NCBI GenBank assembly: GCA_963807635.1
Contig: CAWEDJ010000069.1
Span: 1-32,000, forward strand
Direction of reading: 5' to 3'
Source: an uncultured cyanobacterium
GTDB taxonomy: Bacteria > Cyanobacteriota > Cyanobacteriia > Cyanobacteriales > Microcystaceae
DNA length: 32,000 nucleotides
Part shown: one piece after another, positions 2,913 to 19,338 of the stretch
Layout: the number at the start of each line of letters is the position of its first letter
Numbering within the stretch: the first letter of the stretch is position 1
The notes under the pieces: generated by a model
What the model saw: the letters and a program-made list of their open reading frames with translations, nothing else
The model's database searches: none
What the model was told of the DNA's origin: nothing
Program-made: the position numbers and the translations under genes

Positions 2913-4950
2913 CTAAAAACTGCGATCACGGATAATCCATTTCACCGCTTTGTCCCGACTCGCGGAAGCCAAGGTTTTACTATCGGGGAAATAACTCACA
3001 CTATTGACCGCAGATTGATGCCCGTTGAGGGTTTGGAGTAATTGTCCTGTGCCTACGTCCCACAATTTTACCGTTCCGTCAAAACTCGCGGTCGCCAAGG
3101 TTTTGCTATCGGGGGAATAACTCACACTCCACGCCGCATATTGATTCCCTCCCAAGGTTCGGAGTATTTTTCCCGTGCCTACGTCCCACAATTTTACCGT
3201 ATTGTCAGCACTCGTGGTCGCAAAGGTTTTGCTATCGGGGGAATAACTCACACTAGTGACTCTATTTTGCTCCTCTCCCAAGGTTTGGAGTTCTTTTCCC
3301 GTGCCTACGTCCCACAAATTTACCGTATCGTCATCACTAATGTTAGCACTCGTAGTCGCCAAGGTTTTGCCATCGGGGGCATAACTCACACTATTGACCC
3401 AAAGTTCACTCACTTTCAAGGTTCGGAGTACTTTTCCCATGCCTACGTCCCACAATTGTACTGTTCCGAACCCACCCGCGGGAAGCCAAGGTTTTACCAT
3501 CGGGGGAATAACTCACACTATTAACATTACTGACCGCATATTGATTCCCTCCCAAGGTTCGGAGTATTTTTCCCGTGCCTACGTCCCACAATTTTACCGT
3601 ATTGTCAGCACTCGTGGTCGCCAAGGTTTTGCTATCTGGAGAATAACTCACACTTATGGACCCATCTAAATCCCATTCCAATGTTAGGAGTACTTTTCCC
3701 GTGCCTAAGTCCCACAATTTTACCGTTTTTACCGTTTTGCCAACACTCGTGGTCGCCAAGGTTTTGCCATCGGGGGCATAAATCACACTCCAGACCTCAG
3801 ATTGATTCCCCTCCAAGGTTCGGAGTAATTTGCCCGTGTCTACGTCCCACAATGTTACCGTTCCGTCCTGACTCGCGGAAGCCAAGGTTTTGCCATCGGG
3901 AGCATAACTTACACTATTGACCACAGATTGATGCCCTTCCAAGGTGCGGAATACTTTTCCCGTGCCTACGTCCCACAATATTACTGTTATGCCCCCGCTC
4001 GTGGTCGCCAAGGTCTTGCCATCGGGGGCATAACTCATACTTCTAACCGCAGATTGATACCCTTCCAAGGTTCGCAGCACTTTCCCCGTGCCTACGTCCC
4101 ACAATGTTACCGTATTGTCGAACCCACTCGCGGAAGCCAAGGTTTTGCCATCAGGGGCATAACTCATACCCATGACCCAGGTTGATCTCCTTCCAATGTT
4201 CGGAGTAATTTGCCCGTGCTTACGTCCCACAACGTTACCGTATTGTCGTACCCATTCGCGGAAGCCAAGGTTTTGCCATCGGGGGCATAACTCACACGAT
4301 AGACCGAATCTTGATCTCCTTCCAAGGTTCGGAGTAATTTGCCCGTACCTACGTCCCACAATTTTATCGTTCCGTTTCCACTCGCAGCAGCCAAGGTTTT
4401 GCCATCGGGGGCATAACTCACACTATTGACCCCAAGTTCATTCACTTTCAAGGTTCGGAGTACTTTGCCCGTGCCTACGTCCCACAATTTTACCGTTCCG
4501 TCCCCACTCGCAGCAGCCAAGGTTTTGCCATCGGGGGCATAACTCACACTGTTGACCGCAAGTTCATTCACTTTCAAGGTTCGGAGTACTTTGCCCGTGC
4601 CTACGTCCCACAATTTTATCGTGCTGTCCCGACTCGCGGAAGCCAAGGTTTTGCCATCGGGGGCATAACTCATACTATAGACCGCAGATTGATGCCCTTC
4701 CAAGGTTCGGAGTAATTTTCCCGTGCCTACGTCCCACAATTTTATCGTTCTGTCCCGACTCGCAGAAGCCAAGGTTTTGCCATCGGGTGCATAACTCACA
4801 CTATTGACCTCAGATTGATGCCCTTCCAAGGTTCGGAGTACTTTGCCCGTGCCTACGTCCCACAATTTTACCGTTCTGTCCCGACTCGCAGAAGCCAAGG
4901 TTTTGCCATCGGGGCCATAACTCACACTATAGCCCGCAGATTGATGCCCT
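2913..4950. repeat. Tandem ~126-bp coding repeats (WD40 units) with long identical nucleotide blocks
   Basis: Strings such as gtgcctacgtcccacaattttaccgt and gccaaggttttgccatcggggg recur with a ~126-nt period through the region. Confidence 0.85.
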
Positions 4951-4988
4951 TCGAGGCGATTTTTTTCATTAACTTCCGTTGCCCCCAC
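2913..4988 (-). pseudogene. WD40-repeat region (about 16 units), the C-terminal part of the TIR gene, broken into three frames
   Basis: Minus-strand ORFs 4164..4988, 3406..4359 and 2913..3500 carry repeated 42-aa units (SVSYAPDGKTLASAS.D.TVKLWDVGTGK.LRTLEGHQS.V). Frames switch at 4182-4183 and at 3480-3482, where the coding strand has CCC and sister repeats have CC. The frame stays open upstream towards the TIR ORF. Confidence 0.8.
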
Positions 4989-5023
4989 CTGAATATTGGT
5001 ATTTTCTAAATTATTTTGCGCTT

Positions 5024-5818
5024 CTATTGTTTTAAGCTCTGCACAACCAATTGCTGTCCTGCACCAACAATGGTAATCCCTAAAAAAATTAACCCTCGGC
5101 GAACAATTTGTTTTTGTTGTGTCTTCGCTTCGGCAACGTTTTGATTCGATTTTTCTATTTTTACTTCTGGTTTTTCCTTTGCTTTCTCCAAAATTAAAAC
5201 AGCCTGATGCTTTGCATATTCCATCTCACGGCTTGTTTTAAGGTAATTTATCTGTAACGCTGTTGGTTTTGGATCTTTATCCTCTGTGGCTTTTAACCAC
5301 TTCTCCCCATCACCTAACTCTTCACCGCGTAACAAAAATCCTTCTTTTCGTGCTTCGTTATCCCACTTCAAGGCTCGAACCAATACGTGGGTATGACCCT
5401 TAACATGGGCTATATCCAGATTCAGCGCATCGATCAACTCTTTAAACGATTGGTCAAAATTATCCGTATCCCGAAAAAATAACCAATTATGACTACTGAT
5501 CGCTTGATGAGCAGGATTTTCTTTCTCTAAAAGCTCGTAGGCATCTCGATACACAATCGGCAAAATCTGTTTATTGTACTTGACGGCGTGGTTAATCTCA
5601 TCCTGACAGACCTTAGAAGCCACAGAATCAGGACTAATCACAAAAACAAACGTATCAGCCCCTTCGATCCCCGATTCAATCTCCTTCCAGCATTCAGTTC
5701 CCTTGGCAATCCCTTCCCAATCAACCCAGGTTTCACGATTACTATTTTCCAAAGCCTCATACAAAATACGCACAAACTCTGAATTTTTACGAGAATAGGA
5801 AATAAAAACGTCAGACAT
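5024..5818 (-). CDS. TIR domain protein with helical linker and predicted TM helix; the N-terminal part of a TIR-TM-WD40 gene
   Basis: The N-terminus DVFISYSRKNSEF...FVFVISPDSVASKVCQDEINHA is a TIR_2-like core that includes the conserved Glu. It is followed by a Lys/Glu-rich linker, then KQIVRR-GLIFLGITIVGAGQQLVV. The stop at 5024-5026 follows T4 run 5030-5033, and one extra base there fuses the ORF in frame to ...SLKTIEAQNNLENTNIQVGATEVNEKNRLEGHQS (WD40). Confidence 0.8.
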   Translation of the reverse strand: MSDVFISYSRKNSEFVRILYEALENSNRETWVDWEGIAKGTECWKEIESGIEGADTFVFVISPDSVASKVCQDEINHAVKYNKQILPIVYRDAYELLEKENPAHQAISSHNWLFFRDTDNFDQSFKELIDALNLDIAHVKGHTHVLVRALKWDNEARKEGFLLRGEELGDGEKWLKATEDKDPKPTALQINYLKTSREMEYAKHQAVLILEKAKEKPEVKIEKSNQNVAEAKTQQKQIVRRGLIFLGITIVGAGQQLVVQSLKQ

Positions 5819-10890: not shown

Positions 10891-11677
10891 CTAACGCTTC
10901 GTTCTCACCGTGACTTTTTGAGGTTGATGCTCTAACTTAACATGACGCTTCAAAAAACTGATCTCCGCAGGTTTGAGCGAACGATATTGTCCACTCACTA
11001 AGCGATCCTGGGGAAGATTCAGTTTAATCTCACCGATCGCCCGTCGATGGAGTTTTAAAACTTCAAAGCCAAACTCTTCAGCAATACGGCGAATTTGTCG
11101 GTTTCTGCCCTCGGTTAGGGTAATTTCCAGACAAGTGCGAGTGCGGTCATAATCCACGATTTCGACTTTAGCGGGTAGGGTTTTTTTATCATCCAGCAGA
11201 ATGCCCTGTTCCCATTGCTCTAACTGCTTTTCCGTTGGATGCCCCGATACCCAGACATCATAGGTTTTCGGCAAATGATAGCGGGGATGGGTCAATCGCA
11301 AAGTTAGTTCGCCATCGTTGGTCAACAGCAACGCCCCCGTAGAATGGCGATCGAGTCTGCCAACGGGATGAATCCCCTTACCTTCTCGGAGATGGGGTGG
11401 CAATAAATCTAAGACGGTTTTGCGCTGGGCCTGGTCTTGGCAAGTTGAAATCACGTCATTAGGTTTATTAAGCAACAGATAAACAAATTTGGGACGATCT
11501 CAGCGGCTCAATCCTTTTACCATCTACCTCTAGGCGATCGCGACTGGGATCGGCCTTATCTCCTAATTTGACCACTTTGCCATTTAAACGGACTCTACCC
11601 TCTAAAATTAATTCTTCTGCATGGCGACGGGAAGCTACTCCCCATTGCGATAAAATCTTTTGAATACGTTCGGACAT
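10891..11677 (-). pseudogene. RsuA/RluB-family pseudouridine synthase, frameshifted as assembled
   Basis: ORF 11468..11677 is the S4 domain ([30 protein letters not shown]). ORF 10891..11475 is the catalytic domain ([17 protein letters not shown]). The expected bridge [12 protein letters not shown] lies in the second frame, with the break at about 11494-11504. Confidence 0.8.
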
Positions 11678-11924
11678 GAATTTTCAGACTCCATTGTTAA
11701 TCAAAAAAAGAAAACATTGCCACTAAACGATGAAATCATTTGTGGGGTTACAAATCGTCTTTTAGATCCCTTGGGCGTGATCAATGAATTCTGTTAATCT
11801 CCCTAACCTTTTACTATACAAGAGTTTTGAATATTTAGTCAGCTATACGCAAGTAAAATAAGACTTTTAATCTATGAATAATGATTTTTAATCATCAGTT
11901 TCTCAAAAAAAAAGGTAATCATTT

Positions 11925-12077
11925 ATGAAACTTTTTACCGCGATCGTTGAAAAGGATATAGATACGAATCTCTATGTCGGTTATGTAGTTGGAGAAGCTT
12001 TAATGAGAGCGATCGCCGAAGGTCTTGATGGTGAAAATGCTAGTCGTGAAGAAATTTTTACTGTATTATCTGAGTAA
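11925..12077 (+). pseudogene. Possible truncated HicB/UPF0150-like antitoxin remnant (50 aa)
   Basis: MKLFTAIVEKDIDTNLYVGYV matches the usual N-terminus of cyanobacterial HicB-family antitoxins. The sequence then diverges and lacks the PG...QGET core. It is not in the ORF track because it is under 60 aa. Confidence 0.35.
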
Positions 12078-12135
12078 TCCCTAAAAAACTGTAGGGACGT
12101 AAGGCTTACGCCCAAACCTAGCAAGGAGTTAGAGC

Positions 12136-12495
12136 ATGGAACCGTTGACGCTATTGGCTACAGGAGCCACGATTATTTTGACGGGAGCGTTGACCCGTTT
12201 GGGGGAGCTTTCTTTGGATGGTTCGGTTGAAAAACTGAAAAATTTAATTGCGGCGAAGTCTCCTGATACGTTGAAAAAGTTGCAATCTGCTAATCAAAAT
12301 CCTGCTTTGTTACCTGAAACGATTGAGGCAGTGGCGACTTTACTGGAAGATCCAGAGATGCAAAAAGTTGCGGAACAAGTGGTTAAGGAAAATGAATCTA
12401 ATTCTTACGTTATTAATCAATTTTCTGCTTTAGAAAAAATTCTCAATTTTGCTAATCGGGATATTAATATTGAGGAACAGAATATTACCTTTTGA
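12136..12495 (+). CDS. 119-aa unrecognised helical N-terminal domain of the STAND locus, terminated by an in-frame TGA
   Basis: AAGGAG at 12123-12128 lies 7 nt before ATG 12136. The product has a hydrophobic first helix (EPLTLLATGATIILTGALTRL) and then charged helices. TGA at 12493-12495 is in the same frame as the NB-ARC ORF. Confidence 0.5.
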   Translation: MEPLTLLATGATIILTGALTRLGELSLDGSVEKLKNLIAAKSPDTLKKLQSANQNPALLPETIEAVATLLEDPEMQKVAEQVVKENESNSYVINQFSALEKILNFANRDINIEEQNITF

Positions 12496-13404
12496 CTACA
12501 GCCGCCTGTTCAGGAGCAGGTTAAACAAAACCTTCACAATTTACCGAATAGTGGTGTCGCGCAATTTGTGGGACGTGATGATGTTTTAACGCAATTAGAT
12601 CAGCAATTACAGCAAGCTGATCGCGTGGCGATTTCCACTTTGACGGGCATGGGTGGCATTGGGAAGTCGGAGTTGGCTTTGCAGTACGCGTGGCAGGAAT
12701 GGAATAAAAAAACTTATTTGGGGGGAATTGCCGGGTTAACGGTGGCGGATGGTGATCCTGGGTTAAGTCTTTTAAGTTTTGCTCAGTTGCATTTAGGGTT
12801 AACGTTACCGACGGAAGGAGAATTAAGCGATCGGGTTCGTTTTGTTTGGCAACATTGGTTTAAGAATGAACAGGATCAAGGGTTAATTATTTTTGATGAT
12901 GTGCGGAATTATCAACAAATTAAAGCCTATTTACCGCCTCAACCAGAAAAACGCTTTAAGGTCATTATTACAACCCGCAATAAAAATTTATCAGCGACGA
13001 TTCAGACGTTACATTTAGAGCTTTTAGATCAGGAGCCAGCCTTAGATTTATTGCGTTCCTATGTGACGGATGGACGTATTGATCAACAGTTAGAACAAGC
13101 AAAATTACTCTGTCGAGATCTGGGTTATTTACCCTTAGCCTTGGAATTGGTAGCGCGATTATTAAGGCGACGGAAAAATTGGACAATTCAATCTATTCGA
13201 GAACGGTTAGCAGAAAAGGGATTAGCGGATCAAAGTTTAGTTATCAACCCGAAGTTTGATTCAGAAATGACCGCGTTCAATTCAGAAATTACCGCAGAAC
13301 AGGGAGTTAAAGCGGCTTTTGATTTGAGTTGGGAAGCATTAGATAGCAATGCTCAACAGTTGGCCGATGTATTTGAGCTTGTTTGCCCTCGCTCCCTTTT
13401 CTAA
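12496..13404 (+). pseudogene. NB-ARC (STAND) NTPase module
   Basis: Motifs present: FVGRDDVL, P-loop GMGGIGKSELA, Walker B LIIFDDV, IITTRN and GYLPLALELVA (GLPL motif). Conserved sequence begins upstream of the first in-frame start (GTG 12568). The frame shifts at 13362-13365 into the TPR ORF. Confidence 0.8.
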
Positions 13405-15103
13405 ATTTTTAATTGATGCGTTAGTTACTGAGCAAGATCCTGATGACTTGGAGGAGTGGTTGACAGATAGTTTGGTTAATCTCAATTTAGTTAGCGATCT
13501 GGGAGATGATTGGTATGAATTGCATACGTTGATTCGGGTTTATCTTAGGGAAAAATTAGAAGACTCGCCGTTAAAAGAGGAAGCAAAACGCGCCTATGGT
13601 CGGGTGATGGTCAGTATTGCTCAAACGATTAAGCAGACTTTGACGTTAGCAGATATTGCTAATCTAGAGCCGTATATTGAGCATTTAAAAGTAGCGGCTG
13701 AGGAGTTTCATCAATGGTTAGAAGGAGAAGATTTAACCTGGCCTTTTGTGGGTTTAGGTCGTTTTTATGAAGCCCAGGGACTTTATCAGCAAGCAGTTCC
13801 CTATTTTGAACGCTGTTTAACCTTGAGTGAAGAACGTTTCGGGCGAAAACATCCAAAAGTGGCAACCAGTCTCAACAATCTGGCGAATCTTTATGAGTCC
13901 CAAGGGAAATACCCAAAAGCCGAACCTCTCTATCGGCGATCGCTGGCGATTGGGGAAAAGCAATTAGGAGAAAATCATCCTCAAGTGGCAACCAGTCTCA
14001 ACAATCTGGCGGGTCTTTATGAATCTCAAGGGAAATACGCAGAAGCCGAACCTCTCTATCGGCGATCGCTGGCGATTAGGGAAAAGCAATTAGGAGAAAA
14101 TCATCCTCAAGTGGCAACCAGTCTCAACAATCTGGCGGGTCTTTATGAATCTCAAGGGAAATACGCAGAAGCCGAACCTCTCTATCGGCGATCGCTGGCG
14201 ATTAGGGAAAAGCAATTAGGAGAAAATCATCCTCAAGTGGCAACCAGTCTCAACAATCTGGCGGGTCTTTATAAGTCCCAAGGGAAATACGCAGAAGCCG
14301 AACCTCTTATGGCGCGATCGCTGGCGATTTGGGAAAAGCAATTAGGAGAAAATCATCCTGATGTGGCAACCAGTCTCAATAATCTGGCGGCTCTTTATAA
14401 GTCCCAAGGGAAATACGCAGAAGCCGAACCTCTCTATGGGCGATCGCTGGCGATTTGGGAAAAGCAATTAGGAGAAAATCATCCTGATGTGGCAACCAGT
14501 CTCAACAATCTGGCGGCTCTTTATGAGTCCCAAGGGAAATACGCAGAAGCCGAACCTCTCTATCGGCGATCGCTGGCGATTTTGGAAAAGCAATTAGGAG
14601 AAAATCATCCTCAAGTGGCAACCAGTCTCAACAATCTGGCGGCTCTTTATGAGTCCCAAGGGAAATACGCAGAAGCCGAACCTCTTATGGCGCGATCGCT
14701 GGCGATTTTGGAAAAGCAATTAGGAGAAAATCATCCTCAAGTGGCAACCAGTCTCAACAATCTGGCGGCTCTTTATGAGTCCCAAGGGAAATACGCAGAA
14801 GCCGAACCTCTTATGGCGCGATCGCTGGCGATTAGGGAAAAGCAATTAGGAGAAAATCATCCTGATGTGGCAACCAGTCTCAACAATCTGGCGGCTCTTT
14901 ATTATGCTCAAGAGAAATATGAAGAAGCCGAACCGCTTTACCAAAGAGCGATTGCCATTTTCTCAGAAAAATTAGGCGAAAATCACCCCAACACGCAAAC
15001 AGTAATCATGAATTATTATCTGATGCTTTCCCAACTTCCCGACGAAGAATTAAACCAACGCTTTGACCCCGAAACGGTGGAAATGTTGCATAACCTACGA
15101 TAA
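13349..15103 (+). CDS. TPR (TPR_12 / kinesin-light-chain-like) sensor arm of the STAND NTPase
   Basis: About ten 42-aa units of the form HP.VATSLNNLA.LYESQGKYAEAEPLY.RSLAI.EKQLGEN. The true N-terminus joins to the NB-ARC ORF (...NAQQLA / MYLSLFALAPF). Confidence 0.85.
   Translation: MLNSWPMYLSLFALAPFSKFLIDALVTEQDPDDLEEWLTDSLVNLNLVSDLGDDWYELHTLIRVYLREKLEDSPLKEEAKRAYGRVMVSIAQTIKQTLTLADIANLEPYIEHLKVAAEEFHQWLEGEDLTWPFVGLGRFYEAQGLYQQAVPYFERCLTLSEERFGRKHPKVATSLNNLANLYESQGKYPKAEPLYRRSLAIGEKQLGENHPQVATSLNNLAGLYESQGKYAEAEPLYRRSLAIREKQLGENHPQVATSLNNLAGLYESQGKYAEAEPLYRRSLAIREKQLGENHPQVATSLNNLAGLYKSQGKYAEAEPLMARSLAIWEKQLGENHPDVATSLNNLAALYKSQGKYAEAEPLYGRSLAIWEKQLGENHPDVATSLNNLAALYESQGKYAEAEPLYRRSLAILEKQLGENHPQVATSLNNLAALYESQGKYAEAEPLMARSLAILEKQLGENHPQVATSLNNLAALYESQGKYAEAEPLMARSLAIREKQLGENHPDVATSLNNLAALYYAQEKYEEAEPLYQRAIAIFSEKLGENHPNTQTVIMNYYLMLSQLPDEELNQRFDPETVEMLHNLR
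13850..14983. repeat. Nine tandem 126-bp coding repeats (TPR units)
   Basis: The unit-start codon cat recurs at 13850, 13976, 14102, 14228, 14354, 14480, 14606, 14732 and 14858. Units 13976-14101 and 14102-14227 encode identical peptides. Confidence 0.9.
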
Positions 15104-15108
15104 GCATT

Positions 15109-15212
15109 GTAGGGGCTTGGTCTCCAAGTCCAATCATTTAAAGGTTGAGAAACCCATAATTCAAGAATTTGTTAACCATTAAAGTTAAAGGATTTGGAAA
15201 CCAAACCCCTAC
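15109..15212. repeat. MITE-like element or long hairpin: 23-nt imperfect inverted repeats around a ~58-nt spacer
   Basis: GTAGGGGCTTGGTCTCCAAGTCC (15109-15131) pairs with the reverse complement of GGATTTGGAAACCAAACCCCTAC (15190-15212), with three transition mismatches. It starts 6 nt after the STAND stop codon. Confidence 0.45.
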
Positions 15213-15322
15213 TATTACGTCGATTTACATTATTTTAAAATTAATCAAGGCCACTTCTTTAGCTTACATTAGTTTAAATGACTAGAAATGATTAGTTTGG
15301 CTTCTCCCAACTTCACTATTTT

Positions 15323-16039
15323 ATGACCCAAAATCAGCCCAGTAAACTTATTAGCAAAATTCTTTCCCCCGCTCTACGGCTTTGGTTGCGATCGCAGGTC
15401 GAACACGCCGAACAACTAGACATCCAGATCGAAGGACAAGACCGCCAACTGTTGCGGGGTCACGTTCCCCAGATTTATTTGACCAGTCAACGGGCGATTT
15501 ACCAAGGACTCCAATTAGGAAAAGTTTTACTCAAGGGTGAAAATATCCGCGTCAATATTGGTCAGGTGATCAAAGGAAAGCCCCTCGAACTGCTTGAACC
15601 GATTCAAGTCAGTGGAGAAGTTCAGTTAGCCGAGACAGATTTACAAGCTTCCCTCACTTCCCAGATTTTAGCCAATGCCTTCACCGAATTACTGCTTGCC
15701 CTGCTGGAACTCAAGGGTGTTGCTAATGCCACCGACTTTTTAGCTCCCTACCAAATTCATTGGAACGCGATCGCCTTGTGTCCTGATGCTTTTGGCTTAA
15801 AAGGAACCCTTTCACAAAAAAATGAAAAAAATATTCCCCTAGAAATTCGGGCAAAATTAACGCTTCTCAATCCTCAAACCCTCCATCTCCAGGAAATTGA
15901 AATAACAGGATTCCCTGGGCTGGGTGAAAATGAGACCAACAACTTTCCCGTCGATTTAGGGACTGATGTGGAAATTGAATCCCTCAAACTGAGTCAAGGA
16001 GAACTATCCTGCCTGGGACGGTTACTGATTCGCCCCTAA
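15323..16039 (+). CDS. DUF2993-like (LmeA-type) protein
   Basis: 238-aa ORF. LSPALRLWLRSQVEHAEQLDIQIEG.DRQLL.G..P and the GENIRVNIGQVIKGKPL block resemble cyanobacterial DUF2993 proteins from memory. Confidence 0.5.
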   Translation: MTQNQPSKLISKILSPALRLWLRSQVEHAEQLDIQIEGQDRQLLRGHVPQIYLTSQRAIYQGLQLGKVLLKGENIRVNIGQVIKGKPLELLEPIQVSGEVQLAETDLQASLTSQILANAFTELLLALLELKGVANATDFLAPYQIHWNAIALCPDAFGLKGTLSQKNEKNIPLEIRAKLTLLNPQTLHLQEIEITGFPGLGENETNNFPVDLGTDVEIESLKLSQGELSCLGRLLIRP

Positions 16040-16040
16040 T

Positions 16041-16769
16041 TTAGGAATCCGCAGGCACTTCGGGAGTTGTTTCGGTGGGAGTATCAACGCTAATGGCCGC
16101 TTGAGCCTTCTTTTCCCGTTTTTTTCGTTCTGCTTCCATTGCCTCATCCAAGACCTTGAGCAATTGATCTGCCTTATCCAGATTATTACGGTACAACTCC
16201 AGATCTTTTTGTAATTTCTCGCTGGACAGGTTCAATGCTCCCGATAGCTGGGCAAGGACTTGATTTCGTTTTTCCTCTTCTTTGAGTGCGTCAGGATCAA
16301 CCGTATTGAGAATCGTATAAAGTCCGATCGCAAATAAACGACTATATTTAAAATTAGAATTCTGGTGAATATTGACCAACGTTTGCAGAAAATAGTTATC
16401 TCCTGCTGATTCTGGGGTCAAGTTAGCAACTTTCTCCATCAGATCAGAAACCGCGATCGCCTGGGAAGAAGCCAGTATATCTTGGGCATTTTGGCGATAG
16501 TGATGGGGATCGGCAGAAACAGAGCGACAAACCGCATTAAAAATCGAGCTTTTATCTTCTTCAGGGCGATATCCCTGCATAAACCGATCAAAGGAGGTAA
16601 CAACCCCCAATGCAAAAATCGGATCATAGCGAAAATCCACGTTAACCGTGAATAAATGCATTTCAACCATTAATTCTTCCACAAAACGCCGATAAATCGA
16701 ATTTATAGGACGATGATGATGGACATGGAACTCACGTTTGGTCTCGGAAACGGTACGAATTTTAGCCAC
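16041..16769 (-). CDS. thf1: Thylakoid formation protein Thf1 / Psb29
   Basis: RTVSETKREF....HRPINSIYRRFVEELMVEMHL..VNVDFRYDPIFALGVVTSFDRFMQGY.PEED and the C-terminal DLELYRNNLDK match Thf1. The ORF is open to 16856, but GTG at 16769 (MAKIRTVSETKR) fits ortholog length. Confidence 0.8.
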   Translation of the reverse strand: MAKIRTVSETKREFHVHHHRPINSIYRRFVEELMVEMHLFTVNVDFRYDPIFALGVVTSFDRFMQGYRPEEDKSSIFNAVCRSVSADPHHYRQNAQDILASSQAIAVSDLMEKVANLTPESAGDNYFLQTLVNIHQNSNFKYSRLFAIGLYTILNTVDPDALKEEEKRNQVLAQLSGALNLSSEKLQKDLELYRNNLDKADQLLKVLDEAMEAERKKREKKAQAAISVDTPTETTPEVPADS

Positions 16770-16907
16770 AAATCTAACTTTACAAATAGTAATATAATTC
16801 TCATTCTCCCTTGTAAAGTCCACTTTGCCAAGCCTAAAAACCGAAAAGCAGTTCAAAGCAGAAACGGCGGGCTGTTGTTTTTTTATGCTAAAGTGATGGG
16901 ATATAAG

Positions 16908-16979
16908 GGGTTACTAGCTCAACGGTAGAGCACTGGACTCTTAATCCATTGGTTCAGGGTTCAAATCCCTGGTGACCCA
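16908..16979 (+). tRNA. tRNA-Lys (anticodon CUU)
   Basis: GGGTTACTAGCTCAACGGTAGAGCACTGGACTCTTAATCCATTGGTTCAGGGTTCAAATCCCTGGTGACCCA forms a cloverleaf with a CT-CTT-AA anticodon loop. There is one mismatch at the top of the anticodon stem. Confidence 0.85.
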
Positions 16980-17088
16980 TCCCTCCTTTTTTCCTGTAAA
17001 AATCCCGAATTGCGCTCAAAGAATCGTTAAGAATTACGAAAAAGGCATATTTACCAAGAAGTTTTATTATTACTCTAGGAAAATCATC

Positions 17089-19338
17089 ATGGATAATCTC
17101 ATCCTGCAATTACGGGGAATGAGTTGCGCTTCCTGTGCTTCCACCGTCGAAAAAGTGATTCAAGCGGTACCTGGTGTGATCGAGTGCCAGGTTAATTTCG
17201 GGGCGGAACAAGCCACTGTTCACTATAATCCCCAACAAACGGGACTAGAACAGATTCAATCAGCAGTCGCCAAGGCGGGTTATCAGGCATCCGTTCTTCA
17301 GGAAATTGGGGAAGAAGATGAAGAAAAGGCTTTTCGGCAAGCGGAATTAAGGGATCTAAAACGGAAAATCTGGGTGGGTGGAATTATTAGTGTTCTTTTG
17401 ATGTCGGCCATGATTCCAGGCATTTTTGGCTTAGATTTGCCCTTGATTTCTGTTGGGTTAGGGAATCCCTGGGTGCAATTAATTTTAACGACTCCTGTGA
17501 TGTTTTGGTGTGGACGTTCCTTTTTTCTCGGCGGAGGTAAAGCTTTTAAACGTCATACCGCAACGATGGATACCTTAATCGCTTTGGGAACGGGAGTTGC
17601 TTATCTTTATTCCCTATTTGTCACTTTGTTTCCCCATTTTTTTGCAACGGAAGGCGTAATGCCCCATGTTTATTTTGAAATAGCGGCAACGGTCACAACC
17701 CTTATTTTGTTAGGAAGATTATTTGAAACTATTGCTAAAGGCGAAACTTCGGAAGCTATCCGTAAATTAATCGGTTTGGGGGCAAAAACGGCGCGAGTCA
17801 TTCGTAATAATCAGGAAGTTGATATTGCGATCGCAGAAGTTATTTTAGGCGACATTGTTTTAGTACGACCTGGGGAAAAAATTCCCGTAGATGGAGAAAT
17901 TGTCGAAGGCTCTTCCACGATTGATGAAGCAATGGTGACGGGAGAAAGTGTTCCTGTTAAAAAACAAACGGGCGATGAGGTGATTGGTGCAACGATTAAT
18001 CAGACGGGAAGTTTTAAATTTCGAGCGACTAGGGTGGGGAAAGATACGGTTTTAGCCCAAATTGTCAAAATGGTTCAACAAGCCCAGGGTTCTAAAGCTC
18101 CGATTCAGAAATTGGCGGATCAAGTGACTGCTTGGTTTGTGCCTGGGGTCATTGCGATCGCGATTTTAACCTTTATTATTTGGTTTAACGTTATGGGCAA
18201 TCTTACCCTGGCGATGATTACCACTGTAGGAGTTTTGATTATTGCCTGTCCCTGCGCGTTAGGCCTAGCAACACCGACTTCTATTTTGGTCGGAACGGGA
18301 AAAGGGGCAGAAAACGGTATTTTAATTAAAGGAGCCGATAGTTTAGAACTTGCCCATCAAATAAAAACCATCGTTTTGGATAAGACGGGAACCCTCACCC
18401 AGGGCAAACCGACGGTGACGGATTTTGTGACAATAAACGGGATTGCGGATAATAACGAACTGGATTTGCTCAGACTGGCGGCTTCTCTCGAAAAAAATTC
18501 GGAACATCCCCTAGCAGAAGCAGTGGTCAGATACGCCCAATCCCAACAGGTGAATTTTGCAGACGTTCAAGAATTTAATGCGATCGCGGGAAGTGGGGTG
18601 CAAGGAGTCGTAGAAGGTCAATTAGTGCAAATCGGGACTCAACGTTGGCTAGAGGAATTAGGGATTCCCACCCAAAAACTGGAAGATTATCAACAAACTT
18701 GGGAAAATACGAAAAAAACGGTCGTCTGGATCGCGATCGCTGGTCAAATTCAAGGGATTATGGGGATTGCAGATGCTCTTAAACCCACTTCCGTTGCAAC
18801 CGTCAAGGCTTTAAAAAAAATGGGTTTGGAAGTCGTGATGCTCACGGGAGACAACCAAGCCACTGCCGACGCGATCGCCCAGGAAGTCGGGATAGTCCGC
18901 GTTTTAGCCCAAGTCCGTCCTGAACAAAAAGCCGCTAAAATCCAAGCGTTACAAGCAGAAGGAAAAATTGTCGCGATGGTAGGGGATGGAATCAATGATG
19001 CGCCCGCCCTAGCCCAAGCGGATGTGGGGATTGCCATTGGAACGGGAACCGATGTAGCGATCGCGGCTTCGGATATTACGCTAATTTCGGGAGATTTACA
19101 GGGAATTGTGACTGCCATCCAACTCAGTCGTGCAACTATGCAAAATATCCGTCAAAATCTCTTCTTTGCCTATATCTATAATGTGGCGGGAATTCCCATT
19201 GCGGCGGGGGTTTTATTTCCCATTTTTGGTTGGTTACTAAGTCCGATTATTGCAGGGGGTGCAATCGCCTGTAGCTCTATTTCAGTGGTAACTAATGCGT
19301 TGCGTCTGCGGAAATTTCAGCCCAAAGTTATCATCTAA
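17089..19338 (+). CDS. Copper-translocating P1B-type ATPase (PacS/CtaA/CopA class)
   Basis: N-terminal HMA domain [11 protein letters not shown] motif [19 protein letters not shown] and GDGINDAP. The start is placed at ATG 17089 ([10 protein letters not shown]) because the longer ORF from 16972 overlaps tRNA-Lys. Confidence 0.9.

Follow-up and report, generated by a model that had tools for sequence, protein, structure and literature searches.

The DNA analyzed here (the window) is a stretch of 32,000 nucleotides (nt) from an uncultured cyanobacterium of the Microcystaceae (GenBank assembly GCA_963807635.1, contig CAWEDJ010000069.1, positions 1 to 32,000 of the forward strand). On its forward (+) strand it carries a small gene and, in the same reading frame beyond a single stop codon, an NB-ARC/TPR sensor of the NLR type. 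A Shine-Dalgarno sequence, AAGGAG, can be read off at 12123–12128, 7 nt 5′ of the ATG at 12136, which begins an open reading frame (ORF) of 119 amino acids (aa) that ends at TGA 12493–12495 (12136–12495). Residues 1–93 of its product (12136–12414) make up a Bell-type helical domain, which starts with MEPLT and has its hydrophobic helix 1 at residues 3–20, and the C-terminus (12415–12492) is a BASS5-type amyloid-signalling tail, NQFSALEKILNFANRDINIEEQNITF. The TGA is followed by C (12493–12496), a leaky context that is conserved in related loci, and it shares its frame with a downstream ORF whose listed start is GTG 12568. Past the stop, the frame goes on as LQPPVQEQVKQNLHNLPNSGVAQFVGRDD... through a linker of 24 codons without a start codon, LQPPVQEQVKQNLHNLPNSGVAQF (12496–12567), and runs on into the NB-ARC NTPase module. 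This module stays in the Bell frame (12496–13404) and ends prematurely at TAA 13402–13404, while the helical/winged-helix remainder of the NB-ARC part and the TPR sensor array follow in the +1 frame (13349–15103, ORF as listed). Its sequence marks the locus as a Bell/BASS-NLR module for abortive infection or cell death. Such modules are known from bacteria that grow as multicellular forms or colonies; this one is arranged, unusually, in a single frame.

The NB-ARC part of the sensor matches Pfam NB-ARC (PF00931) with E = 4.1e-17 and 62.7 bits against a cut-off of 23.5, and its Walker A (GMGGIGKS), Walker B (LIIFDDV), TTRN and GYLPLAL motifs are all present. TPR_12 matches the TPR part in ten stretches (E = 1.9e-194), and a tandem array with a period of 126 nt, 8.7 copies and 95% matching occupies 13845–14934. 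The first-pass annotation, made from the letters of the window, had described the Shine-Dalgarno sequence, the 119-aa ORF in frame with the NB-ARC ORF, a conserved stretch between the TGA and GTG 12568, complete NB-ARC motifs and about ten TPR units, and our reading bears out all of these. It had also drawn a single NB-ARC/TPR ORF to 15103, and here it erred, having overlooked an extra G at 13366 that shifts the frame between the NB-ARC and the winged-helix/TPR parts; in the window, the NB-ARC (frame 1) and TPR (frame 2, +1) parts are not one ORF. The G is specific to the window. In the alignment with the closest relative, Snowella sp. ULC335bin1 (L009, about 92–93% nt identity, syntenic over window positions 11545–17287), ttggcc-atgtat stands against ttggccGatgtat. 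The same alignment revealed an in-frame insertion of 21 nt in the window, which reads as an imperfect tandem duplication (FDSEMTA/FNSEITA, about 13258–13299) and is found neither in L009 nor in L048. In relatives the NTPase and TPR parts are contiguous, with frames open over 696–1068 aa in L009, L048, L006, L021, L028, L030 and L043. Because of the extra G, a protein made in the window by reading through the TGA would stop at 13404 without the TPR array, unless the G is an assembly error. Going by this alignment, the sensor of the window is damaged or misassembled at 13366.

The 119-aa product is matched by no model in Pfam, NCBIfam or PADLOC, collections that hold no Bell model, and the Pfam effector-associated domain (EAD) models (EAD1–11) gave no match to it even at E up to 10. 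Searches of the PDB likewise yielded no match, with best values of E = 0.019 for the sequence profile and E = 1.9 for Foldseek run on an AlphaFold2 (AF2) model. The AF2 model is a six-helix bundle over residues 3–106, with a mean predicted local distance difference test score (pLDDT) of 70.8 and a predicted template modelling score (pTM) of 0.61, and residues 104–119 fall below a pLDDT of 50, a low confidence that is consistent with a disordered tail. The product begins with MEPLTLLATGATIILTGAL; its Kyte-Doolittle hydropathy, in a 19-residue window, peaks at 1.49 at residue 4, and helix 1 is its most hydrophobic segment. The ratio of nonsynonymous to synonymous polymorphism (pN/pS) of the helical core is 0.39 in frame, as opposed to about 1 in the other frames, indicating purifying selection. 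By its published definition, a Bell domain is helical and about 100 aa long, its first helix is hydrophobic, and an acidic residue stands at position 2–3 (bioRxiv 10.1101/2020.01.06.895854). In the same work, the domain is followed by a BASS, an amyloid-signalling sequence at the C-terminus that measures about 25 aa and abounds in N, Q, G, V and I, and the published Bell genes adjoin the gene of an NB-ARC/TPR or NACHT/WD NLR whose N-terminus carries this motif too. A conserved N-terminal motif, "MEPIS", was named in the preprint on the Bab/Agp system (bioRxiv 10.1101/2024.11.07.622273), and P0129, a distant member of the window's Bell family, starts with MEPIS.

The tail of the 119-aa product, EKILNFANRDINIEEQNITF with the core EKILNFANRDIN, matches the BASS5 strings published for Microcystis PCC 7806, namely EKIVNFSQRDIN on the Bell side and KIVNYAQGDIN on the NLR side (Table S2 of Dyrka et al., bioRxiv 10.1101/2020.01.06.895854). 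When the window family was compared by hhalign with more distant Bell-like proteins, probabilities of 95.6–97% were obtained; the value of 95.6% belongs to the Bell protein of L055, which bears a near-copy of the published Bell-side string of PCC 7806. Other tails occur in the same Bell family, both BASS3/RHIM-like (...SQSGIGNSQNNTFNL, NVGIVNQGTIHNPTFNFN) and long BASS4-like ones. On the strength of published features and motif strings, rather than seed sequences, the small ORF is assigned as a Bell-type domain with a BASS5 tail, and the Bell-type domain is predicted to have a membrane-targeting role. The first-pass annotation had likened the N-terminal module to HeLo or CC-type executioners, a comparison with which the MEPLT start, the hydrophobic helix 1, the helical bundle and the BASS5 tail agree. 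Its view that the domain could be assigned to no family holds as far as Pfam is concerned, but not beyond, since the published Bell features and the BASS5 motif fit.

To follow the stop codon through the family, about 50 loci were retrieved, and 26 representative loci were tabulated for stop context. The identical 119-aa ORF was found on 10 independent contigs from JGI, ENA, Logan and NCBI samples. In L048, whose Bell ORF is identical to that of the window and whose NLR shares about 82% nt identity with it, the same TGA-CTACAGCCGCCT and the same linker follow, and the frame then stays open for 820 aa. In L041–L046 the identity of the N-terminal domain to the window drops to 31–41%, and the stop is still kept; two of these loci, L043 and L044, lie on contigs of 0.45 and 2.95 Mb. 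The TGA might have been a lesion or an artefact, either because a formerly fused gene had recently acquired a nonsense mutation or because a base was misread in sequencing, and lesions do lie nearby in the window, such as the frameshift at 13366 and a split rluB-like gene. However, the stop recurs with an identical ORF on independent contigs and is retained in every relative down to 31% identity, in at least four named genera, with no sense-codon allele. Its presence on 10 independent contigs and its conservation across the family exclude nonsense mutation and base-call error, and we give this explanation next to no credence.

The homologs found in protein databases are short. A word-indexed search of 5.8 billion proteins returned 86 homologs, all of 65–173 aa, and a HMMER profile search of 1.84 billion representatives returned 27 matches, which bar one measure 49–175 aa; none in either set is annotated as fused. 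The exceptional match, of 2519 aa, was rejected as spurious, as it covers only profile positions 3–31. The first-pass annotation had named an independent, conserved 119-aa gene as a finding that would speak against its proposal of one interrupted protein. Formally such a gene exists, every database homolog being short; but the in-frame continuation is also conserved in relatives, so that the short homologs do not dissolve the recoding question, and the stop does interrupt an apparent single protein. Of the four options that had been listed for the TGA, nonsense mutation and base-call error thus fall away, and stop-codon readthrough, which we favour, and a deliberate split into two chains remain.

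The base that follows the stop was compared between loci with different continuations. Where the frame continues without a start codon, usually into an NB-ARC/TPR protein, C follows the stop in 20 of 20 loci (19 TGAC and one TAGC, the latter in L042). Snowella, Microcystis, Crocosphaera and Dolichospermum are among their sources, as are metagenomes. In these loci the stop is followed by CTA, CTG, CAG, CCA or CCG, so that the residue may be L, Q or P, yet the first base is always C. Where the frame ends 5–68 codons past the stop, G follows in all five cases (L011, L027, L037, L026 and L033; TGA-G, TAG-G or TAA-G), and the three TGA-G loci of this group carry a second stop in a nearby frame. In the two loci in which a start codon abuts the stop, L055 (TGA-GTG) and L054 (TGA-ATG), the following base is G or A. 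As a background, TGAC makes up 2 of the 89 long-ORF stops counted over all loci, and TAA ends 9 of the 12 solid genes of the window. The continuation is open for 528–1068 aa into NB-ARC/TPR in nine loci representing eight lineages: L005 (Crocosphaera), L006, L021 (Microcystis), L009 (Snowella), L014 (Dolichospermum), L028, L030, L043 and L048. The frame also enters NB-ARC in L023, L041, L042 and L046, where it is still open at the contig end; in L045 the contig breaks off after just 17 open codons.

No sense codon was found at the stop position among the roughly 50 loci, the 86 close clusters and the 27 representative clusters. An apparent Trp in P0083 (...F-W-LQPP...) was considered as a TGG allele and rejected, given that the DNA (L039) has TGA and that the gene caller had used a code in which TGA means Trp; the Trp at the stop in P0085 likely has the same cause. 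The P0083 (L039/L040) and P0085 entries could mislead searches for fused alleles. The distribution of alleles bears on the idea of a contingency or phase-variable switch, in which the stop would keep the system off and a TGA-to-TGG reversion in a subpopulation would give an all-in-one Bell-NLR. A single transition would join both parts, and all-in-one Bell-like NLRs do exist. With no sense allele in any of these sets and no mutable repeat at the stop site, we consider it very improbable.

A conserved in-frame UGA could also be read as selenocysteine or another non-standard residue by means of a dedicated recoding element, and a small candidate hairpin, CCTG-N8-CAGG (12505–12520), does begin 12 nt past the first base of the stop (9 nt past its last). 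This hairpin comprises 4 bp; in an alignment of 12 diverse loci, 95.8% of the cells are paired and one pair covaries. The third pair changes from U-A to G-C in L030 and L042 and is U-G in L023 and L041, even where the encoded peptide differs. The hairpin is too small to call. Rfam gave no match at E up to 5, and no selenocysteine insertion sequence (SECIS) was found. Furthermore, L042 uses TAG, no homolog has Cys at this position, and no tRNA-Sec or suppressor tRNA lies within the window. To our knowledge, selenocysteine decoding is not a cyanobacterial trait, and an assignment of this kind is barely credible.

The linker between the stop and the NB-ARC module appears, from its pattern of substitutions, to be translated. 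Linker codons 8–24, which sit 5′ of every candidate start, have a pN/pS of 0.26 in frame, compared with 1.20 and 0.43 for the two alternative frames, in a small sample of 17 codons from 7 sequences. Its length varies by whole codons only, and the F of FVGR, together with an NLP.SG-like stretch, is kept at all depths of the family. The GTG of FVGR, which the window has at 12568, does not occur in L006, L018, L021 and L014, and no usable start precedes it; in L006, the longest intact continuation, the first in-frame start-like codon comes 8 codons before the P-loop. No amyloid motif follows the stop (LQPPVQEQVKQNLHNLPNSGVAQFVGRD), and the NLR half lacks the NLR-side motif of a BASS5 pair. Between the small ORF and the NB-ARC ORF no terminator-like site was found, and the sole nearby promoter-like match (12271–12300) falls inside the small ORF.

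Relatives with two ordinary genes are built differently, and their effector genes end in strong stops. In L037, the Bell gene ends with TGA-G-TAA; the NLR begins at a separate ATG and carries a second copy of the motif, MEIKIGQDGFGNVQHNTFNV, which matches ...SGIGNSQNNTFSL of the Bell protein. The canonical BASS5-NLR P0140 has the N-terminus M..TVNDAQRDINIKQQNIY-PPNQEPPKPNPHNL..FVGRD, in which the motif is followed by the same linker and then by the NB-ARC. This order of motif, linker and NB-ARC is the one that would be expected from decoding the TGA of the window.

These data have to be weighed against a reading as two cistrons, according to which Bell-BASS5 synthesis always stops at the UGA, the NLR is made by reinitiation or from an internal start such as GTG 12568, and the common frame is a relic of an abutting stop and start. 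In L055 and L054 the start codon does abut the stop, and genes arranged in this manner share a frame by construction. The FVGR GTG is present in the window, L005, L009, L013, L028 and L030, where it could serve as an independent start. Moreover, 57% of the published Bell/NLR pairs are at most 10 bp apart and 42% overlap, which suggests coupling (bioRxiv 10.1101/2020.01.06.895854). However, the codon after the stop provides no usable start in the 20 stop-C loci, the GTG is not conserved, and the linker on its 5′ side is under purifying selection and changes in length by whole codons only. An NLR begun at the GTG would also have no amyloid motif with which to signal to a BASS-tailed effector, unlike its canonical relatives, and the constant C after the stop, despite the varying residue, would be left unexplained. 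Independent or coupled initiation of the NLR is the main rival to readthrough, and we regard it as rather unlikely.

Our interpretation starts from what the sequences show: the domains can be identified, the stop is conserved along with its context and the open frame beyond it, the linker is under purifying selection, no start codon is conserved, and two-gene relatives are organised differently. Given that the NLR half has neither a start codon nor an amyloid motif of its own, that the stop-C is conserved and the linker selected, and that canonical relatives differ in these respects, readthrough is the best explanation, and it would supply the NLR with the missing motif. UGA is the leakiest bacterial stop codon, UGA-C is the weakest tetranucleotide in E. 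coli, and near-cognate tRNA-Trp is the usual reader of UGA; the A1 protein of phage Q-beta is the classical product of programmed UGA readthrough. On balance, we lean towards programmed UGA readthrough at this locus, by which much free effector and little Bell-BASS5-NLR sensor would be made. Whether an entire clade of cyanobacterial Bell/BASS-NLR modules relies on programmed UGA-C readthrough, with effector and sensor both made from one frame, seems to us about an even call.

In the mechanism that we propose, most ribosomes would terminate at UGA 12493 and release a free, latent Bell-BASS5 executioner. A minority would read through the weak UGA-C, most plausibly inserting Trp by means of tRNA-Trp, pass the linker and continue into the NB-ARC/TPR part, yielding a rare Bell-BASS5-NB-ARC-TPR protein. 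A trigger sensed by the TPR array would then lead to oligomerisation of the NB-ARC, and thereby to clustering of the N-terminal BASS5 motifs. Once clustered, the motifs would nucleate the amyloid and impose its fold on the free Bell-BASS5 molecules, and helix 1 of these would attack the membrane. The oligomerisation and nucleation, templating and membrane steps are modelled on the published Bab/Agp and HET-S/NWD2 systems.

Several observations weigh against programmed readthrough. The minimum free energy (MFE) z-scores of the region after the stop are near 0 in 12 loci, indicating no strong RNA structure there, and the hairpin is small. The linker ratio stems from few codons and sequences, and linker codons 1–7 after the stop are unconstrained (ratio 1.18). 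The purifying selection on the remainder could also be mimicked by gene conversion, if paralogous NLRs with a translated linker were the donors. The GTG of FVGR offers a possible independent start in the loci that have it. The abutting starts of L055 and L054 imply that the single-frame layout could descend from coupled stop-start genes, and these two loci suggest that a motif-less NLR may be viable; both of their NLRs are truncated, to 72 and 134 aa. Since the lineages are kin by descent and recombine, the 20 of 20 stop-C loci do not amount to 20 independent events.

A last point of this kind comes from the commonest Microcystis form (L001, L007, L008, L010, L012, L016, L017, L019, L020, L022, L024 and L025), which keeps the TGA-C and the first 13 linker codons but has the NB-ARC replaced by a 97-aa extension (DTTSESSKS...). 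Here the ratios are 0.84–1.36, with no sign of selection on the extension. The Bell gene of this form is intact, and a TPR-only ORF follows in another frame. As no selection was detected on its extension, we treat the variant as a decayed, NLR-deleted derivative. NLR halves are broken in the window, L013, L018, L054 and L055 as well, and such frequent breakage fits the fast turnover expected of immune genes.

The family is also mosaic. Across L001–L048, one Bell core occurs in free combination with two downstream modules and no fewer than five types of tail around the conserved junction, and recombination may take place at the conserved stretch TGACTACAGCCGCCTGT..., which would then serve as the joint. 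In L054, the C-terminal tail encoded by a TIR-domain gene (1871–2905) abounds in G, N and Q (GFQINVSGGTVNISPPTQQPD); the gene ends with TGA, directly after which comes the ATG of an NB-ARC ORF that begins with a linker of the same family (MESSERDRTK...FVGRD). The stop junction in a single frame is thus not limited to Bell effectors.

Among known systems, the closest are the BASS5 pairs of Microcystis aeruginosa PCC 7806 described by Dyrka, Saupe et al. in 2020. As in the window, their helical domain is about 95 aa long, helix 1 is hydrophobic, position 2 is acidic, and the C-terminal tail contains much N, Q, I and F. They also share a collinear NB-ARC/TPR gene directly downstream with highly similar TPR repeats, and they too come from colonial cyanobacteria. 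The main difference is that the published NLR has its own start and an N-terminal copy of the motif, whereas the NLR of the window has neither and is joined through UGA-C. The published screen needed the motif on both proteins and, given this method, would probably have missed the single-frame class.

The Bab/Agp system of E. coli ECOR25 is an antiphage system with Bell-mediated abortive infection through amyloid templating, in which Bab moves to the cell periphery and membrane alterations occur upon infection (bioRxiv 10.1101/2024.11.07.622273). Like the window, it has a small Bell-type ("Babybell") effector with a MEPIS-like N-terminus and a C-terminal amyloid motif, here BASS11, and a sensor with the same motif activates the effector, which provides an experimental precedent for the mechanism proposed above. 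Unlike the window, it consists of two ordinary genes with no in-frame stop. The MEPIS motif also occurs in Avast2 and bNACHT proteins, so that a Bell-like domain fused to an NLR is known (same preprint). Avast2/Avs2 and bNACHT02/11/23 thereby combine a Bell-like N-terminal domain, a STAND NTPase and a repeat sensor as the proposed readthrough product would, but they are single uninterrupted ORFs, with an NTPase of the NACHT/Avs type and no free effector. PADLOC had no model that matched the NB-ARC or Bell parts of the window.

At the level of translation, the A1 protein of Q-beta and eukaryotic UGA-CUA contexts resemble the window in their leaky UGA-C (mostly UGA-CUA) and in that an abundant short product would be accompanied by a rare extended one with a distinct role. 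Unlike Q-beta A1, the window holds a cellular cyanobacterial immune locus, the extension is a protein of 700–1070 aa, and readthrough is here proposed from sequence. A further parallel is offered by EAD1–11 on cyanobacterial STAND NTPases (Pfam PF19954 etc.), as EAD10 takes the place of Bell-BASS in sister NB-ARC proteins that share the linker and FVGR; EADs, however, are adaptor domains, not membrane-targeting executioners. A Bell-BASS5 effector with an NB-ARC/TPR NLR is, in summary, of a known kind, and the novelty lies in the in-frame UGA-C junction, which is conserved and leads into a sensor devoid of start and motif. We found no description of such a junction in the literature, and nothing relevant on readthrough in Bell/NLR or antiphage systems.

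The surroundings of the module in the window show further irregularities. An rluB-like pseudouridine synthase gene on the reverse (−) strand (10891–11677) is split into an S4 ORF (11468–11677) and a PseudoU_synth_2 ORF (10891–11475) in different frames; it is intact, with 261 aa, in the near-identical locus L048, and the synteny with L009 begins only at 11545. On the forward strand, an ORF of 50 aa (11925–12077) is an apparent chimera of a HicB-like N-terminus, MKLFTAIVEKDIDTNLYVGYV, and a RelB-like antitoxin C-terminus, ...AIAEGLDGENASREEIFTVLSE, and L048 has an intact HicB-like gene of 86 aa in its place. Because rluB and hicB are intact and the frame is open in L048, the frameshift, the split rluB and the truncated hicB are peculiar to the source of the window, while the TGA is shared. 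These three changes reflect either real decay or an assembly error. Toxin-antitoxin modules (HicAB, RelB/ParE) recur beside or inside the Bell/NLR loci, as in L001, L005, L026 and L037. Farther upstream, the reverse strand carries a second NLR-like remnant (2913–5818), with a TIR_2 ORF (5024–5818) followed by at least three overlapping WD40-repeat ORFs in different frames (4164–4988, 3406–4359 and 2913–3500). No NTPase domain was detected between the TIR_2 and WD40 ORFs, in a scan that covered only the TIR and WD40 ORFs. The remnant is either a fragmented TIR-WD40 gene or the product of repeat-induced assembly frameshifts.

If readthrough at this junction is true, it would be, as far as literature searches show, the first reported case of programmed stop-codon readthrough in a prokaryotic NLR or cell-death system, and the very few programmed readthrough events known from bacteria would be joined by one that is cellular and tied to immunity. 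The low-to-high ratio of sensor to effector would be set translationally. The amyloid motif would be kept matched between the two products because it exists in a single copy, and it could diversify without paired changes in two genes, with which the five interchangeable tail types are consistent. Given that gene callers split such loci into a "hypothetical protein" and a 5′-truncated NLR, and that motif-pair screens probably miss them, current catalogues do not show the class. In bacteria, Bell/BASS-NLR pairs correspond to HET-S/NWD2 of fungi and to amyloid signalling of the necroptosis type, and the module described here is a candidate phage-defence or cell-death switch in bloom-forming Microcystis, Snowella and Dolichospermum.

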